Positions 8,211 through 15,552 of a stretch of DNA of 64,000 nt are shown here, in pieces. This DNA is from Desulfomonilia bacterium. Its GTDB lineage: Bacteria; Desulfobacterota; Desulfomonilia; UBA1062. The notes under the pieces were generated by a model. The model saw nothing but the letters and a program-made list of their open reading frames with translations. It did no database searches and was not told where the DNA came from. The stretch's first letter is position 1, and the number at the start of each line of letters is the position of its first letter. Made by a program: the position numbers and the translations under genes. The DNA is taken from contig JBEKDT010000003.1 in the NCBI GenBank assembly GCA_050014195.1, positions 192,001 to 256,000 of the forward strand, read 5' to 3'.

Positions 8211-10637
8211 ATGAGTACGAACACCGTTGCCATAGACCAGGAGATGAGGCGCTCGTACCTGGACTATTCCATGAGCGTCATCATCGGACGCGCCATCCCT
8301 GATGTGCGCGACGGCCTTAAGCCCGTCCATAGAAGGATCCTGTTTGCCATGCAGGACCTGGGCAACACCCATACGAAGGCCTACAAGAAGTCGGCCCGCA
8401 TCGTGGGTGATGTCATTGGTAAGTACCATCCCCACGGTGACTCCGCAGTCTATGATGCCATTGTCCGCATGGCCCAGCCGTTCTCCTTGCGGTATCCCCT
8501 GGTCGACGGCCAGGGCAACTTCGGTTCCGTGGATGGCGATCCGGCCGCTGCCATGAGGTATACCGAGATCAGGATGTCGCGCATAGCCGAGGAGATGCTC
8601 GCTGATCTTGAAAAGAATACCGTGGATTTCCATCCCAACTACGACGAGTCTCTGCAGGAGCCCGATGTACTGCCCACGAGGATACCGGGGCTGCTGCTGA
8701 ACGGGTCTAGCGGTATCGCGGTGGGCATGGCCACCAGCATCCCGCCGCACAATGCCACCGAGCTGATGACCGCCCTGATCGCCCTAATCGACAAACCTGA
8801 TCTGACACTGCCCGAGATCATGCGGATCATCCCCGGGCCTGATTTCCCCACCGGCGGCATCATCATCTCCGAAGGCGAGATCGAGAAGGCCTACCGCACC
8901 GGCAGGGGCATCATCATTGTCCGCGGCAAGGTGGAAAGGGAGGAAGAGCAGAACCGGGAGAAGATCATCATCTCCGAGATCCCCTTTACCGTGAACAAGG
9001 CCGATCTCGTCACGCGCATCGCTCTCCTGGCCCAGGAAAAGAAGATCGACGGCATTGCCAACATCCGCGACGAGTCGGACAAGGACGGCATGCGCGTGGT
9101 CATCGAGCTGAAGAAGGGGGCTCCCGCCGAGGTCATCGAAAACCAGCTCTACAAGCTCACCACGCTCCAGGCCTCGTTCTCCATGAACCTGCTCGCCATA
9201 CACAACAACAGGCCCGCCACCATGGGTCTTTTACAGCTGCTTCAGGCCTTCCTTGATTTCCGCGAGGAGGTGGTCACCCGCAGGTGCCTCTTCGAACTGG
9301 CCAAGGCAAAGGACCGCATCCATATCTTGGACGGCCTCTTGAAGGCGTTAGAGCACATCGACGAGATCGTGGCGCTCATCAAGGCATCGGCCAACCCGCC
9401 TGAGGCAAAGATAAACCTGATGGAGCGCTTCGGCTTCTCCGAGATCCAGGCCCAGGCCATCTTGGACATGCGTCTCCAGAGGCTCACCGGACTGGAGCGA
9501 GACAAGCTTGCCGACGAGCACGCGGCACTTTCCAAAGAGATCAGGCGACTCGAGCTCATCCTTTCCGACCGCAATGAGCTGCTCAAGGTCATCAGGGCAG
9601 AGCTCCAAGAGGTCAAGGCCGACTACGCGGACGCCAGGCGGACCATGATCCTGAAGGGTGAGATCGGCGAATTCAACGTGGAAGACCTCATCCCCGATGA
9701 GAAGATGGTGGTCACCATCACCCGCAAGGGTTATGTGAAGCGCACCGAGCTCGACAAGTACCGCACCCAGAAGCGCGGCGGTGTGGGCGTCAAGGGGGCG
9801 TTGACCGGTGAGGACGACTTCATCGAGCACATCTTCGTGGCCACCAACCACACCTCCATCCTCTACTTCACCAACAAGGGCAGGGTGTACCACACCAAGG
9901 TATACGAGGTCCCGGAGCGCGACCGCGCGCTCAAGGGCGTGCCCATCGTGAACATTCGCCCCATCCAGAAGGAGGAGCGCATCTGCGCCATCCTGGTCAC
10001 CACCGACATCAACATGGAAGCCGAGGTCGTGATGGTAACCGCCATGGCCAACATCAAACGGGTCGAGCTCAAAAGCTTCAGCAACATCGTGCGCACGGGC
10101 ATCATCGCCTGCACGCTGGAGCCGGGCGACGAGGTCATGTCGGCCCGCATCACCACCGGCAGCACCCGCATCATCGTTGCATCCAGGGCCGGCAAGGCCA
10201 TCATCTTCCCGGCCGACCAGGTCCGAGTCATGGGCCGCCAGGCGCAAGGGGTGCGAGCCATCAAGCTCAATGAGGGCGATTCGGTTATCGGCATGGATGT
10301 CATCACGAGCGACGACGACCTGGTCATCAATCTGACCGAGTACGGCTTCGGCAAGAAGACTATTGTCAGCAAATACCCGGTCCAGAACCGAGCAGGCAAG
10401 GGTGTAAATACGGTCCACATCACCAAGAAGACCGGCGACCTCGTGGGGGTGAGGGTGATCAAGGACACCGACGAGCTCATGATCATATCCACGTCGGGCC
10501 AGATCATCCGCATGCCCGTGTCCCAGATCCGCACCACCCGCACGCGCTCTGCCCAGGGCGTGCGCGCCATACGCATGAAGGAAGACGAGAAGATCGTGGA
10601 CTTCACCAAGTACGTCAGCGAAGAAGACGCCGACTAA
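8211..10637 (+). CDS. gyrA: DNA gyrase subunit A
   Basis: [26 protein letters not shown] catalytic Tyr, GyrA-box QKRGGVG, beta-pinwheel repeats. Confidence 0.98.
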
Positions 10638-10673
10638 ACGGCGCTCATCACGAGAGATAACCTTAAGATAAAT

Positions 10674-10697
10674 CCCGGCCTCCGAAAGGGGGCCGGG
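10674..10697 (+). terminator. GC-rich hairpin after gyrA, possible terminator
   Basis: CCCGGCCTCC-GAAA-GGGGGCCGGG; no clear U-tract on + strand. Confidence 0.55.
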
Positions 10698-10726
10698 CAA
10701 GAAATAACCCGCAGATTCATAACTCT

Positions 10727-10753
10727 GTCATTCCCGCGAAAGTGGGAATCCAG
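10727..10753 (+). repeat. REP/dRS3-like palindrome
   Basis: GTCATTCCCGCGAAAGTGGGAATCCAG matches the ATTCCC-N8-GGGAAT / GTCATTCCCGCGAAAGCGGGAATCCA repeat pattern. Confidence 0.75.
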
Positions 10754-10838
10754 GAAAGTGAAGGTGTTATTTTTGCGCTTGATGGAGAGTCTAAGATTTA
10801 TCTATCTTTTTAATTTTATGTCCTTTCTTTTGGTGCCA

Positions 10839-10913
10839 CAATTCGGCAGGATAGCCGAATTAGACGCACTTTACGTGCGCCCGAAGGGCGAAGGCCAGGG
10901 ATGGCCTGAGTCA
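10839..10913 (+). mobile_element. 75-nt four-hairpin mini-element, copy 1
   Basis: Removing it restores the perfect stem TCCTTTCTTTTGG/CCAAAAGAAAGGA. Confidence 0.75.
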
Positions 10914-10993
10914 AAAGAAAGGACCGAAGAAAAGGCACCCCGTGAACCCGCCCTTCGGGTCCGTTCGCTCGCTTGGAAAATCCGGGCCGCGGA

Positions 10994-11070
10994 TAAATTT
11001 CTTCAGGATAGAAGAAATTGACGCACCGAAGGTGCGCCCAAAGGGTGAGGGACAAGGATGTCCCGAATCA
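10994..11070 (+). mobile_element. 77-nt four-hairpin mini-element, copy 2
   Basis: Same hairpin architecture as copy 1; absent at the equivalent position of element copy B. Confidence 0.7.
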
Positions 11071-11198
11071 AACTCGCTTCGTTTCACTTCGCTCAAACAA
11101 GAGACGCTTTCCCCTGGATTTTGCTTCACTCGCTCACCGGGGTCAAAGGGGATCAAAAAGGCAAAAACACGATCTGGACAGGATTGGCAGGGAAGGGG

Positions 11199-11318
11199 AT
11201 ATCCGGAATGGAATATAAAAAGAATAATGCCTTGCACTCAATATCCGGATATACTGCAATTGTGCATCGGATAACTATAGTGATATCCTGCAAAAGTACA
11301 GTATAGTAATTGTTATGT
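11199..11318 (+). other. Putative integron attI-like site
   Basis: ATATCCGGA at 11199 and 11241 plus GATATCC at 11282, ending in core site GTTATGT (11312-11318) 22 nt before the first cargo gene. Confidence 0.45.
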
Positions 11319-11340
11319 GTTTCAGAAAGGGTAAAGACCC

Positions 11341-12456
11341 ATGAAAGCTGTTATTTTAAAACCTGTTATGTGGAATGAAAACGAGTATATCAGTCCCTCT
11401 GGCTATCCAAGTACGAGCGGTTTCGCAAATGCATTCGGATATGGACATGAGGAATGGAATAATAGCCAAAGGCGCATCTGGCGAAGCTATAAGGTCTTTC
11501 ATACTGAATCAACGGATAAATTATTGCAGTACTCTGCCACAGGAGAGCTCGCTATTGTTACAACTGCCTCCTTAAATAGAGCGCAATACGCCATTAGCAT
11601 TGCCACAAACGTCTTTGACAATAATGCAGATGAGCGTAAAATAATAGCGAAAGAGCTTAATGTATATAATGATTGGGTAGAAGTTTGGTCAATTGACAGG
11701 GTTAAGCAGTGTTTCAATAATAATCAACAGCGTTTTCTTGAGCATTGGCAAAGTAACTACGAGTGGATAAGATGGAAATGCCCAATATCTCAATATCACC
11801 ACTTCAATAGACCTGTACTCCTTAACCCTTCATCAATATCTGGTAAGGCTCGTCTCACTTCAATGCATGGTAGATTCCAGGCTATTTATCCAGAGCAATG
11901 TTTGCAAATTATCGGCAGCTACTTACCTGAAAATCATCCCATTTGCGAGTGGCTCTCGAGCAGGGATTTTGATGAGGAAATTATCTCAAAGACTATAAAG
12001 AACTTCCGTTCAACTCATAATATCAGATTGCCTCGTAGTAGGAGTGGATCAAATGCTCCTGCTATAAGGGCATATCAGTATTGGGTGGAAGGAAATCGGA
12101 GCGTAGAACCTCATCATGCGCTCCTACAGGCGAAGTTTGTAAACTACCTGACCTCGAATGCATTATCATATCAAGAAAACATTGATTACATTGACGTCAA
12201 ATACCAGCTAAACGGAATAGATGTTTTAGTAGAAATCAAACCTACTGATAAGATTCAGACCAAGTACGCTATACGCATTGCGATAGGGCAGCTACTTGAG
12301 TATAGATACATAATGAATAGTCAAGCGATTCTTGAGATAGTCCTTGGAAGTAAACCTAGAGATGAAGAGATAGCTTTCGTTAATTCATTAGGAATTTACT
12401 TAACCTACTTGGATTCAAATAGCGGCGATTTTATACGTGCTGGTACTGTCACATAA
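11341..12456 (+). CDS. Hypothetical protein with C-terminal PD-(D/E)xK-like nuclease domain; candidate defence protein
   Basis: C-terminal YIDV...VEIK...AIGQLLEY motif; N-terminal WNENEY..PSG...GYGHEEW domain not recognised; AT-rich relative to flanks. Confidence 0.7.
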   Translation: MKAVILKPVMWNENEYISPSGYPSTSGFANAFGYGHEEWNNSQRRIWRSYKVFHTESTDKLLQYSATGELAIVTTASLNRAQYAISIATNVFDNNADERKIIAKELNVYNDWVEVWSIDRVKQCFNNNQQRFLEHWQSNYEWIRWKCPISQYHHFNRPVLLNPSSISGKARLTSMHGRFQAIYPEQCLQIIGSYLPENHPICEWLSSRDFDEEIISKTIKNFRSTHNIRLPRSRSGSNAPAIRAYQYWVEGNRSVEPHHALLQAKFVNYLTSNALSYQENIDYIDVKYQLNGIDVLVEIKPTDKIQTKYAIRIAIGQLLEYRYIMNSQAILEIVLGSKPRDEEIAFVNSLGIYLTYLDSNSGDFIRAGTVT

Positions 12457-12479
12457 CCATGGCATGCAGGCCGTTGGCA
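12450..12479 (+). other. Truncated attC-like site between the two cargo genes
   Basis: CACATAAC (contains the TAA stop)-CATGGCATGCAG-GCC-GTTGGCA; CACATAAC is the exact reverse complement of GTTATGTG at 11312. Confidence 0.6.
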
Positions 12480-12498
12480 ATAAACAAAGAGTATCCAT

Positions 12499-13377
12499 AT
12501 GAATGTATTTATAAGCTGGTCAGGCGAAGAAAGTAAAGCATATGCAGAGGTATTTCGACAATGGTTGCCTAAAATAATACAGGCCTGCGATCCATTTTAT
12601 TCACCTGAAGACATTAAAGCAGGAATGCGATGGAGTGCAGAAATTGCTGGTAAGCTGCAAGAGACAGAGATTGGCATTCTTTGCCTTACAAGGGATAATC
12701 TTAATGCTCCCTGGTTGATGTTTGAAGCAGGTGCTTTGTCTAAACAACTAGAATCAAGAGTGTGTCCCATTTTGTTCGGTTTAAGTCCAGCGGATATTCA
12801 GGGACCGTTGACTCAATTTCAATTAAATAAGTTTTGTCCCGATGGCGTATATAGAGTACTTTCATCAATAAACGATCTGTCAAAGCCAAATCGGTTATCT
12901 TCGGAGGTTTTAAAAGACTCATTTGACAAATGGTGGCCTGATCTTGACTCAAGTATATCAAAAGCCACACCAATAGTTAGTTCTCCAAGCATAGCCTCTT
13001 TACGAAGTGAACGTGACCTAATTGAAGAAATACTAATCCGAATCAGAAACAGTACCGTCGAGTCACCTATTGATCCAGCCATGGTCAGTATGTTGATAAG
13101 TTGTTTTGGTCGTCTCGCAGATACGCCCCGCTATATAGCAGATTCCAAGAAACAGGAAACGGCATCACACGCACTTTATCATTTTCAGCTCCCAATTCAA
13201 CACCTCATTACACGAATTATCGATACGCACAAACGCCATGAAATGGCTCAAGCTTATGCAGAGGCAATTAATGTTTTCTATAATGGCTCTGTTGATAAAG
13301 ATAAACTCATTGAAAATTTAACGAATCCTTCACATGGCCTGATTACAAGTGCTCCAATCATCCATAAGGCAGATTAA
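12499..13377 (+). CDS. TIR-domain protein with unrecognised C-terminal region
   Basis: VFISWSG, DIKAGMRW, GILCLT, PWLMFEAGAL (putative catalytic Glu), VCPILF, PLTQFQ. Confidence 0.88.
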   Translation: MNVFISWSGEESKAYAEVFRQWLPKIIQACDPFYSPEDIKAGMRWSAEIAGKLQETEIGILCLTRDNLNAPWLMFEAGALSKQLESRVCPILFGLSPADIQGPLTQFQLNKFCPDGVYRVLSSINDLSKPNRLSSEVLKDSFDKWWPDLDSSISKATPIVSSPSIASLRSERDLIEEILIRIRNSTVESPIDPAMVSMLISCFGRLADTPRYIADSKKQETASHALYHFQLPIQHLITRIIDTHKRHEMAQAYAEAINVFYNGSVDKDKLIENLTNPSHGLITSAPIIHKAD

Positions 13378-13441
13378 AATTACAGACCATATTTTTTAAA
13401 AGCGGGCGGATGGCCTGGAAAAGATATAAATCTATGGGTGG

Positions 13442-13471
13442 CACGGGCGAAGCCCGAAGGGCTTGCCCGTG
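13442..13471. repeat. REP-like palindrome
   Basis: CACGGGC(G)AAGCCC-GAA-GGGCTTGCCCGTG preceded by GGGTGG. Confidence 0.6.
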
Positions 13472-13510
13472 GGACATAGTAATAGTTAACGCCTTGCTTT
13501 TACTGCTCAG

Positions 13511-13773
13511 GTTTTTTTAGCCCCCCTCGAAACAGGCGAGGAGCGCAGGGAAAATCCGTAAAGAAGCAAGCCCATGTTTGATGCGATACATCCATGTATC
13601 GCACCCTGACGGGCGCACGTAAAGTGCGTCCAATTCTGCTATCCCTGCAGAATTGTGAGCGAAGCGAGTTGGCTTGCTTTAAGGATTTTCCCGAGCACCG
13701 CAGCGGACCCCGAAGGGGCTGTTTCGTTGGGTGCCTTTTCTTTGGTGACTTTCTTTGCACAAAAAGAAAGTAA
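13511..13773 (-). repeat. Structured non-coding element, copy B (inverted relative to A; one nested mini-element)
   Basis: Long-range stems CGAAACAG/CTGTTTCG, GGGAAAATCC/GGATTTTCCC, GCAAGCC/GGCTTGC and terminal hairpin ACTTTCTTT/AAAGAAAGT. Confidence 0.8.
13579..13655 (-). mobile_element. 77-nt four-hairpin mini-element, copy 3
   Basis: Interrupts CTTCGCTCA^AACA, which is intact in copy A. Confidence 0.75.
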
Positions 13774-14242
13774 CAATGTAAGCAAATATGAATGCCCAAA
13801 TCTAACCCTCAGTTACTAAAGATTTAATCACGGTAAATCATTTTAAGAATATTAATTATTATCTCCATTAAAACAGCAATACCACTAATAACATTATAGC
13901 TAATTTAACTAGATAAATCAATTAACAAGAGCTTTACCTCTCAAAAAAGGGCATGTCGATAAAGTATTGAAGGTAGACCTAAGACGATTCCTAACTCAAG
14001 AAAATAATTGTTGGATTCATGCACGGTTTAATAACAATAAGTAACATATTGATTATATGATCATAGTTGCTATTATGGAATGCATGCATCTTTGAGGGTA
14101 ATCTATTTAAATAGAAATGTAGTGAAAGTAATTATGCCCTGTTTCATCTGAATAATTAATAAGGTGATATTGCAGGGACAGACTCCTGGACAAACGAAAG
14201 GTATTCTTATATATGTTGGTTAACCCGACACAAGGTGATCTC

Positions 14243-14821
14243 ATGGATAAGCGGAATGCATTTTCATCAAATCATGTTGCCAAGGCGTTGAATATTGAGC
14301 CGGAGAGGCTGCGTCAATGGATAAGGCTTGGGTTTGTCACGCCGAATACCCCGGCGAAAGGCCAGGGCAGCCGGGGGATCTTTACGCGTGGAGATGTCTA
14401 CTCTGTGGAACTTTTCAGGCGGCTTTTGGACTTGGGAATAGCGAGATCGTTCGCGGCATCGCTCTCCCGGGTGTACTCTGTCCCCCGTAGATATTTTAGC
14501 CTCAGCGAGGAGACGGGACGGCCCATTGAAAAATCTAAAGAAGATGATGCTTCTGAAGAGAGTTTGATTGAGGCCGGGGATATCCTCTGCATCGTCTTTC
14601 ACAATGATCCGAAGTTCCCGGAAGTCAAGCTGTTGACCCCGACCGCGATCCTGGCTGTTGTTGGGACCAAGATCCTGAAAAAGGAGCAGAGGGAAAAAAC
14701 AACTTTCGAGGACCTGATTTCCTCGAAGAGGGATCTGCTCGGCAAGGGAGAGTGGACGCGCATGCTCGCTGTGAACTTGAAAAAATTGCGTGATGAGATC
14801 GATGCAGGATTGCCGGACTAA
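14243..14821 (+). CDS. MerR-like/excisionase-like HTH DNA-binding protein
   Basis: N-terminal FSSNHVAKALNIEPERLRQWIRLGFVTP...RGIFTRGDV winged HTH; C-terminal part unrecognised. Confidence 0.7.
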   Translation: MDKRNAFSSNHVAKALNIEPERLRQWIRLGFVTPNTPAKGQGSRGIFTRGDVYSVELFRRLLDLGIARSFAASLSRVYSVPRRYFSLSEETGRPIEKSKEDDASEESLIEAGDILCIVFHNDPKFPEVKLLTPTAILAVVGTKILKKEQREKTTFEDLISSKRDLLGKGEWTRMLAVNLKKLRDEIDAGLPD

Positions 14822-15051
14822 GGATTACGGGAGGATATTTTTTGATTATTGCCGTCATCCCGGCATTAGGCATGCAATCTATCCGGACCTTTTAAATATT
14901 TGCAGTGACGGCGAAATGACTGGTGGCAAATTTTTCTTACAAAGCCAGGTATAATCTGCGATTCCGCTCGATTTCTTTGATGAAAAAAAGGCAGATCTTT
15001 TTTCTGTGCATGCAAGTGAATCTCTTTTATATGAAGAATTGCCGTCTGTCT

Positions 15052-15552
15052 TCATCCCTTACCCTCGTTCTCCTGATGGGCAGCCTCACTGCGTATTTCC
15101 TGCTGCCTGAGCTCCCTGCGCGCCTGAGCCTCCTTGCAACGCCTAGCCTGTTCGTTGTTCTCGACGATCAGAGGCGGGACCTTCATGGGCTTTGAGCCGG
15201 AATCCAGGGCAACATAGGTCAGGTAGGCCGATGCCGTATGCCGCACCTCTCCAGTCAGGAGATCTTCGGCCTCCACCCGCACGCCCACCTCCATGGATGT
15301 TTTGCCGACCATGTTTATGCTTGCCTTGAGCGTAATGAGGTTCCCGATGTAGACCGGGTTGTGGAAATGCAGACGGTCGATGGATGCCGTGACGACATTG
15401 CTGCGGGCATGCCTTGCTGCAACCGATCCCCCGGCATTATCGATGAGTTTCATGATTACCCCGCCATGGACATTCCCGGCGGGATTGGCGTCTTCCGGGG
15501 TCATCAGCTGCGCCATCGTAATCATGCTTTCACTTACCGTTTTTCCCTTCAT
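15052..15552 (-). CDS. Acyl-CoA thioesterase (hotdog fold, YciA-like)
   Basis: DANPAGNVHGGVIMKLID, VVTASID, GKTSMEVGV, TYVALD. Confidence 0.92.
   Translation of the reverse strand: MKGKTVSESMITMAQLMTPEDANPAGNVHGGVIMKLIDNAGGSVAARHARSNVVTASIDRLHFHNPVYIGNLITLKASINMVGKTSMEVGVRVEAEDLLTGEVRHTASAYLTYVALDSGSKPMKVPPLIVENNEQARRCKEAQARRELRQQEIRSEAAHQENEGKG

Follow-up and report, generated by a model that had tools for sequence, protein, structure and literature searches.

A probable decayed integron cassette array at an orphan attI-like site downstream of gyrA

The probable cassette region downstream of gyrA

Two genes located directly past gyrA in a 64-kb stretch of the genome of a Desulfomonilia bacterium (the window) are very probably what is left of a small integron cassette array, now decayed, whose head is an orphan attI-like landing site. 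This site, M4, belongs to a ~95-nt module found in 20 distinct copies in the genome (G000, assembled in 29 contigs, C1 and so on); the genes encode a 371-aa protein with a nuclease domain and a 292-aa TIR protein. The sequence-only reading of the window had proposed an attI-like site followed by cassettes and lacking an integrase, and this central point is supported by the M4 family, the cores of attI sites in relatives, the boundaries shared with homologues and the absence of a detectable intI. As an integron relic the locus is ordinary; the dispersed and conserved attI-like family, with its promoter-like element, is the unusual part.

The window includes an origin-proximal core stretch (parA, parB, dnaN, gyrB, gyrA), with gyrA (8211-10637) directly upstream of M4 and the cassettes. 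Just past gyrA, positions ~11000-14500 form an islet of 40% G+C in surroundings of 52-60%. The islet contains the open reading frames (ORFs) of 371 aa (11341-12456) and 292 aa (12499-13377), with only 42 nt between them, and these are followed by a MerR-like gene (14213-14821). The parts of the proposed array are listed here, with the evidence for each in brackets.

11218-11314, + strand: orphan attI-like site M4 (20 genome copies, end of conservation at G^TT, core as in intI-adjacent attI)
11313-12473, + strand: cassette 1, starting TTATGTG, with the 371-aa gene at 11341-12456 (R'/R'' complementarity, boundary at locus L050, fold and motifs)
12451-12479, + strand: attC stub, R'' ACATAAC and 5' flank joined to 3' flank and R' GTTGGCA (attC model R1, filters off)
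12474-13377, + strand: cassette 2, starting TTGGCAA, with the 292-aa TIR gene at 12499-13377 (Pfam TIR_2, PADLOC TIR-TM, loci L179 and L178)

The sequences GTTATGTG (11312-11319) and CACATAAC (12450-12457) are reverse complements of each other over all 8 nt, and the second contains the stop codon (TAA, 12454-12456) of the 371-aa ORF, just as the sequence-only reading had it. A genome-wide control covered the 3246 ORFs of at least 200 aa and recorded a GTT-starting 8-mer no more than 60 nt upstream of the start together with its reverse complement no more than 20 nt from the stop. Only 12 of the 3246 ORFs carry such a pair. By comparison of coordinates, ten of these fall in stretches positive for the attC model described below, the gene in the window is the eleventh, and C2:352527-353330 is the sole one left unexplained. 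The signature is real and far above chance. The same reading had pointed to repeated motifs upstream. ATATCCGGA is found at 11200-11208 and 11241-11249, a partial ATATCCTG at 11283-11290, and 11314 is the end of TAATTGTT; the coordinates and the end hold, while conservation among M4 copies is limited to the second ATATCCGGA, which is part of a 12-nt palindrome, ATATCCGGATAT. The ATATCCGGA at 11200 is peculiar to the copy in the window.

M4, a multi-copy attI-like site

Within M4 the following elements are distinguished.

11227-11232, + strand: -35-like hexamer ATGCCT
11241-11252, + strand: palindrome ATATCCGGATAT
11250-11255, + strand: -10-like hexamer TATACT
11250-11258 and 11297-11305: inverted arms
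11301-11314, + strand: core GTATAGTAATTGTT
between G11312 and T11313: putative crossover

The copies were collected with BLAST and iterated nhmmer (29 nhmmer hits, including palindromic reverse-strand ones). When aligned, they share ...TTGCCTTGCACTCA ATATCCGGATAT ACTGCAATTGTGC...GCAAAAGTGCAGTATAGTAATTG^TT and diverge completely after it. Conservation stops at ...AATTG^TT, which in the window is G11312^T11313, and every copy is followed 10-80 nt downstream by a different gene in the same orientation. The hexamers, ATGCCT-17-TATACT, show a sigma-70 pattern of conservation, with T46, A47 and T48 invariant and A49 and T51 conserved in at least 90% of copies. The genes after the copies are mostly of defence or conflict type: TIR, ThsB-like TIR, LmuA-like, KAP NTPase (QatA/PifA-like), FRG (PDC-S15) and DUF4365, and further DUF3800, HNH, DUF5677 and DUF4145. 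One copy is located at C1:149391. M4 is present in seven of the 14 other genomes of the genus (congeners), usually in several copies, and in one genome of a sister genus; it was not found in the remaining 45 genomes searched outside the genus.

The 3' core of 11218-11314, some 15-20 nt long, matches intI-adjacent sites in five relatives (G007, G012, G021, G069 and G070), two of which are congeners, so that the comparison with attI suggested by the sequence-only reading came out in its favour. In these relatives the sites end ...GTATAGTAAT[TC]G^TTA: ...CTGTATAGTAATCG^TTATGCG in G007, ...CTGTATAGTAATTG^TTATCTG in G012 and ...CCGTATAATAATTG^TTATAC in G021, with G069 and G070 similar. The first cassette of G007 has the matching R'' at its end and a full attC. 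Once aligned, the intI-adjacent sites and five M4 copies agree without exception in the columns C.GTA.A..A.TTGTT. In the window's genome the core motif is found 10 times against ~1 expected, with six of the occurrences in M4 copies and four elsewhere. A second kind of orphan attI is found in the same genome at C9:44000-44041, a G007-type attI (41 nt, 88% identity) with no adjacent integrase and an attC 2.7 kb downstream; three more core-motif sites are located at C1:102888, C2:31112 and C2:224277.

The sister copies keep the same R'/R'' bookkeeping. In six of the eight with ...ATTG^TT, the exact reverse complement of GTTNNNNN is located 0-33 nt from the stop of the first ORF, and at four copies this R'' opens a canonical attC of 57-67 nt. 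The C1 array is unbroken over seven successive sites, each R'' being complementary to the preceding R'. The crossover of the C5 copy lacks 2 nt, and the R'' of its first cassette still matches the next 7 nt. In relatives the pairing is seen in two of six testable loci; two of the other four had less than 610 nt of downstream sequence. Automatic walking along cassette chains is unreliable, as 7-mer matches arise by chance within 6 kb; therefore only the 8-mer test on first cassettes and a covariance model were used. This model, R1, was built from 14 attC sites (13 from the window's genome, one from the congener G007) and gives 41 genome sites at E<=0.01. It is positive downstream of seven of the 20 M4 copies and also at one TIR-bounded locus that lost M4. 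An array of four attC sites (C7:210541-213889), at whose head no M4 was detected, reaches to less than 900 nt from the contig end. Contigs C16 and C28 break within repeat-bounded cassette loci, and assembly gaps coincide with these elements.

The same chromosomal place is occupied differently in the congeners. In G008, gyrA is followed directly by M4, with two attC sites; G011 has M4 with one attC. Behind the M4 of G002 (88% identity) come a 2TM gene, an NlpC/P60-like gene and a Phd/YoeB pair, again with two attC sites. G004 retains a partial M4 with the junction G^TTGGCC. In G003 just 11 nt from the end of M4 are left, accompanied by a degraded kinase-like frame and a DUF4145 gene, and G013 has ~160 nt between gyrA and the MerR-like gene. 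As the site is the same and the contents differ, it is an old feature within this part of the genus, and what it carries turns over. The spacer of G013 (locus L155) ends in CTGTCCTTTCTTTT, the outermost 14 nt of a ~190-nt repeat unit described below, which could be the footprint of a lost element or its original target.

No IntI was found in the window's genome (best TIGR02249 score 82.7 bits, cut-off 265), and tblastn with the IntI of G007 returned only a 47-aa C-terminal remnant on contig C10. The remnant (C10:179413-179553, minus strand, 55% identity to G007 IntI) is directly beside an attC at C10:179556-179612. IntI scores above the cut-off in 25 of 52 family genomes and in eight of the 14 congeners. 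None of the relatives that share the gyrA site has intI there; gyrA is directly upstream and intI is on other contigs. The statement of the sequence-only reading that intI is gone is thus correct for the genome as searched, while nothing shows that intI was ever at this locus. All seven M4-bearing congeners have an IntI match (two of them partial), as do only two of the seven without M4; the window's genome, with 20 M4 copies and no IntI, is the exception. Because the relatives are not independent, this co-occurrence is only a pointer.

The two probable cassettes and their products

The stub at 12451-12479 is the best match of model R1 in 10500-14500 with filters off (13.2 bits, E 0.013). Its 29 nt align with the first 16 and the last 13 positions of the model, and the 34 central positions, with all the paired bases of the stem among them, are absent. 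As the whole stem is missing, the stub cannot fold and cassette 1 is frozen. The 371-aa gene thus has the complementary cassette start and R'' and lacks a complete, folded attC.

The search for homologues of the nuclease gave 109 proteins, all unnamed; the comparison of loci covered 79 related ones. L050 (76% identity) is unrelated to the window before G^TTATGTGTTTC and shares sequence with it from exactly this point on; L050 ends with CACATAAC and a complete attC of ~110 nt (25 bits, E 0.003), the 5' arm of which resembles the stub in the window. The homologue of L056 is located within an array of attC sites, and at L062 a partial homologue is preceded by one attC. Association with attC is seen at these three of the 79 loci. 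Homologues of the 371-aa gene do occur as cassettes, as the sequence-only reading had expected, and the upstream region does resemble attI, the two points on which that reading had staked itself.

The predicted model of the 371-aa protein has a mean predicted local distance difference test (pLDDT) score of 90.3. Residues ~255-371 adopt the PD-(D/E)xK fold (1y88, Z 10.5; 2okf, Z 9.7; 2vld, Z 9.5; Foldseek 2inb, E 4.4e-4), and D285, E298 and K300 are invariant in 31 sequences, which places the C-terminal domain of the predicted structure in this superfamily. Residues 1-200 resemble readers of the PUA superfamily (1wmm, Z 6.8; 6k6u, Z 6.7; 5guq, Z 6.0; 6yex, Z 5.9), namely PH1033, YTH, ASCH and VcaM4I. 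The whole protein has no Pfam or PADLOC match. From these predicted folds, it is most likely a type IV-like, modification-dependent restriction enzyme made of one protein, in which a PUA-like domain (YTH/EVE/ASCH-type) would be the reader. VcaM4I (6yex) and MspJI (4f0p) carry an N-terminal PUA-like fold and a C-terminal nuclease in a single polypeptide, the arrangement that is also predicted for the 371-aa protein; the latter differs from them in that it belongs to no sequence family and that its N-terminal domain reaches only Z 5.9-6.8. The same N-terminal domain is joined to an HNH_2 nuclease in P0111, and similarity restricted to residues 1-200 is seen in many proteobacterial proteins, among them those of many Pseudomonas and Burkholderiales loci. 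About fifteen nuclease homologues (P0023, P0028, P0043 and others) are 540-555 aa long, with an extra N-terminal part of ~190 aa for which there is no Pfam match.

The 292-aa protein scores above the family threshold for PF13676 (TIR_2; 33.7 bits, cut-off 28) and is thereby assigned to the TIR-domain defence proteins. It also matches PADLOC PDLC03016 'TIR-TM' (221 bits, 6.3e-66) over residues 1-239, with the last ~50 profile positions unmatched. The 67% homologue in L179 is located behind ...GGATATAATCATTG^TTGGCAAC, an attI-like core (core end ATAATCATTG), and has the same start as the window at 12474. The 57% homologue in L180 is located behind ...ATATATACATTG^TTAGCGG, and the 87% homologue in L178 has two attC sites upstream. 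No attC was found after the TIR gene with model R1. With tblastn, no TIR homologue was found in the 79 nuclease-homologue loci, and none was found in 51 other genomes of the family. The nuclease and TIR genes are not a conserved pair and are probably two separate cassettes.

We propose that an integrase supplied from elsewhere, such as those present in most congeners, would have cut between G11312 and T11313 and inserted circular cassettes at M4. There would have been two insertions, of the cassette with the reader-nuclease and of that with the PADLOC-family TIR protein, and the pair would probably be transcribed from the promoter-like hexamers inside M4. As the stem-loop of cassette 1 is lost, cassette 2 lacks an attC and no integrase is found in the genome, the pair would now be fixed.

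Related systems, flanking repeats and alternative explanations

Compared with the attI of complete integrons (attI1 of class 1, and G007 and G012), M4 has a G^TT crossover, here putative, at the end of the conserved array head. The TT... with which the first cassette opens belongs to that cassette's R', the promoter-like hexamers point towards the cassettes, and the core GTATAGTAAT[TC]GTTA is common to M4 and the intI-adjacent sites of relatives. M4 differs in having no adjacent intI, in its number, ~20 per genome where an integron has one attI, and in its 5' two thirds (palindrome, long inverted arms), which are unlike the attI of the congeners. The attI1 site carries DR1 and DR2 repeats. By sequence, then, the locus has the attI-type head of a complete integron without the adjacent IntI.

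Cassettes without a nearby integrase are also the mark of two known groups lacking the integron integrase, clusters of attC sites (CALIN) and single attC sites (SALIN) (Cury et al. 2016, PMC4889954; Loot et al., bioRxiv 10.1101/2022.09.11.507474), and the window's genome holds many such arrays (41 attC matches). The array in the window contains no complete attC and therefore falls outside the definition of CALIN (at least two attC) and SALIN (one attC) and would escape an attC-based finder. A conserved attI-like head is not described for these clusters in the available parts of PMC4889954 and bioRxiv 10.1101/2022.09.11.507474. According to PMC4889954, the attI of most integrons is not known. 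The origin of integrase-less clusters is unsettled, with integrase loss, rearrangement or attG insertion proposed, and most have no recognisable intI pseudogene nearby (bioRxiv 10.1101/2022.09.11.507474). Sedentary chromosomal integrons have been described as stores of anti-phage systems (bioRxiv 10.1101/2024.07.02.601686). The compact cassettes seen here are likewise of defence type, with the putative reader-nuclease and TIR in the window and KAP NTPase, FRG, LmuA-like and DUF4365 genes at sister sites; the arrangement differs, with many arrays of one to three cassettes at scattered orphan sites and one large array in place of one long array beside intI. A multi-copy family of orphan attI-like sites was not found described in the literature searched, the coverage of which was partial and is no proof of absence.

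The array is bracketed by two copies of a dispersed repeat.

10823-11165, + strand: left ~190-nt repeat unit, 'structured element A' (36 BLAST matches, boundary shared by 13 aligned copies, direct repeat family D1)
13500-13777, - strand: right inverted ~190-nt unit (inverted repeats I1, I2, I8 and I9; alignment row C3win_R)

The left unit opens with the hairpin GTCCTTTCTTTTGGTGCC...AAAAGAAAGGAC. The unit has 36 BLAST matches in the genome, and the 13 aligned copies have a sharp outer boundary in common. Inverted pairs of units bracket M4 and cassettes at five loci (the window, C15, C9, C28 and C16). Seven congeners (G005, G006, G007, G010, G011, G014 and G008) lack the whole unit at the C9 locus and have its flanks ~60-250 nt apart; in G001 and G012 they are ~0.9 kb apart. 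The sequence-only reading had taken structured element A to occupy the position expected of intI. This was not upheld: the element is not an intI remnant, because it is dispersed, is also present in inverted orientation past the cassettes and is absent from G008, a more distant congener in which M4 follows gyrA without repeat units. As G008 has M4 and cassettes without the units, the site predates the units there.

The bracketing at five loci, the missing unit of C9 in seven congeners and the sharp outer boundary would suit a gene pair brought in by a non-autonomous transposon, either a mobile insertion cassette or an element similar to a miniature inverted-repeat transposable element, bounded by the ~190-nt units, with the integron features secondary. 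We consider this very unlikely, given that M4 and cassettes are found at gyrA in G008 without units, that no target-site duplication of the units could be defined and that the boundaries shared by homologues are at G^TT instead of at the repeat units; a transposase with such ends did not turn up either, though none was searched for. Insertion at a secondary site of attG type, M4 being an attG hotspot and not a relative of attI, is in our view very unlikely. Integrases do insert outside att sites, and small integrase-less arrays have been proposed to arise in this way (bioRxiv 10.1101/2022.09.11.507474). The same source describes attG sites as short and broadly unlike attI, whereas M4 is a conserved family of ~95 nt with a core matching the intI-adjacent attI of five relatives, and it is reused at the same base for different cassettes in different species.

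Only the faintest chance is left to the explanation of M4 as nothing other than a portable promoter or operator module of an accessory-gene regulon, in which the 8-nt inverted repeat would be coincidental or terminator-like. The conservation of M4 ends at the same base as that of real attI, six of eight first ORFs end with the exact complement of the junction 8-mer, homologues on unrelated contigs share sequence only from G^TT onward, and canonical attC arrays follow seven copies. Set against this are the sigma-70-like conservation of ATGCCT-17-TATACT, a perfect 12-nt palindrome that overlaps the spacer and the -10 element, and the 13 of 20 copies, the window's counted, without a downstream attC match. 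A portable promoter with the 8-mer arising by chance was dropped after the bookkeeping test, the attC model and the comparison with attI. A promoter role fits the attI reading as well and is therefore not a true rival to it.

Several observations weigh against a decayed cassette array at an attI-like site. With default filters, model R1 finds no complete attC in the window at E<=1, the stub reaches only 13.2 bits, and the same model finds no attC downstream of the 13 copies just mentioned. The expected R'' of cassette 2, TGCCAAC, was not seen after the TIR gene; its only copy is ~5.6 kb away and chance-like. GTTATGT and ACATAAC deviate from the strict textbook GTTRRRY/RYYYAAC, and 11 of the 20 copies have no GTT at the junction. 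M4 is like attI over no more than its last ~15-45 nt; searched as an nhmmer profile against 12 intI loci, it gave nothing significant (best E 0.26), and no M4 copy adjoins intI in the loci examined. Several of the 13 copies without a downstream attC match precede ordinary-looking genes (a P-type ATPase, a response regulator). With 29 contigs, an intI could lie in an assembly gap. The fold matches of the N-terminal domain of the nuclease are middling, all with Z under 7. RNAalifold on the 20 M4 copies gave no consensus structure and no pairs, and a named M4 hairpin, 80.8% paired, has a weak to modest covariation score that was matched by four of 500 shuffles; no RNA structure is claimed for M4.

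On balance we favour the decayed array at an orphan attI-like site. A wider proposal, which we advance tentatively and hold to be somewhat doubtful, is that the M4 copies are dispersed, promoter-bearing attI 'satellite platforms', to which one integrase, resident or incoming, would feed cassettes at some twenty sites in trans. Most integrase-less clusters of the lineage would then have been built at dedicated orphan pads and not from wrecked integrons or random insertions, and the ~190-nt units of five pads may be the copying vehicle. A conserved, multi-copy attI-like head offers a concrete third route to integrase-less cassette clusters. Several species have M4 at the corresponding chromosomal position, with cassettes that differ between them. 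Decayed arrays are missed by attC-based finders, and the R'/R'' 8-mer test finds cassettes with almost no background (the 12 ORFs of the control). The cargo adds an uncharacterised reader-nuclease family, with its 109 homologues, as a candidate one-gene restriction system.

Two further features are located between the TIR gene and the MerR-like gene, the first of which is a short repeat.

13402-13482, + strand: GC-rich hairpin repeat, REP-like (34 nhmmer hits, 15 aligned)

Some of the 34 hits stem from adjoining repeat sequence in the query. The stem of this family covaries (GCCC/GGGC, GGCC/GGCC, ACCC/GGGT), a conserved CGGGCGGGTGGCC box is located upstream, and conservation ends ...CCCGTGGGA. 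The hairpin was considered as the attC of cassette 2 and rejected, since the conservation ends inside the hairpin and the family is a separate one. Two copies flank the Phd/YoeB pair in G002. The second feature, at 13780-14212, is an AT-rich, non-coding stretch of 430 nt before the MerR-like gene, in which no ORF and no Rfam match was found; G003 has it with 90% conservation, and G002 lacks it. Rfam gave just two sub-threshold chance matches over 10000-15500, and a tRNA search of the window found none.

The ~190-nt units contain a nested mini-repeat of 74-78 nt, at 10842-10915 and 10999-11072 in the left unit and at ~13579-13657 in the right one. One copy is located exactly in the loop of the terminal hairpin of the unit, and the mini-repeat is also found alone at many sites in the genome. 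Its appearance is that of a small insertion element that would target hairpin loops.

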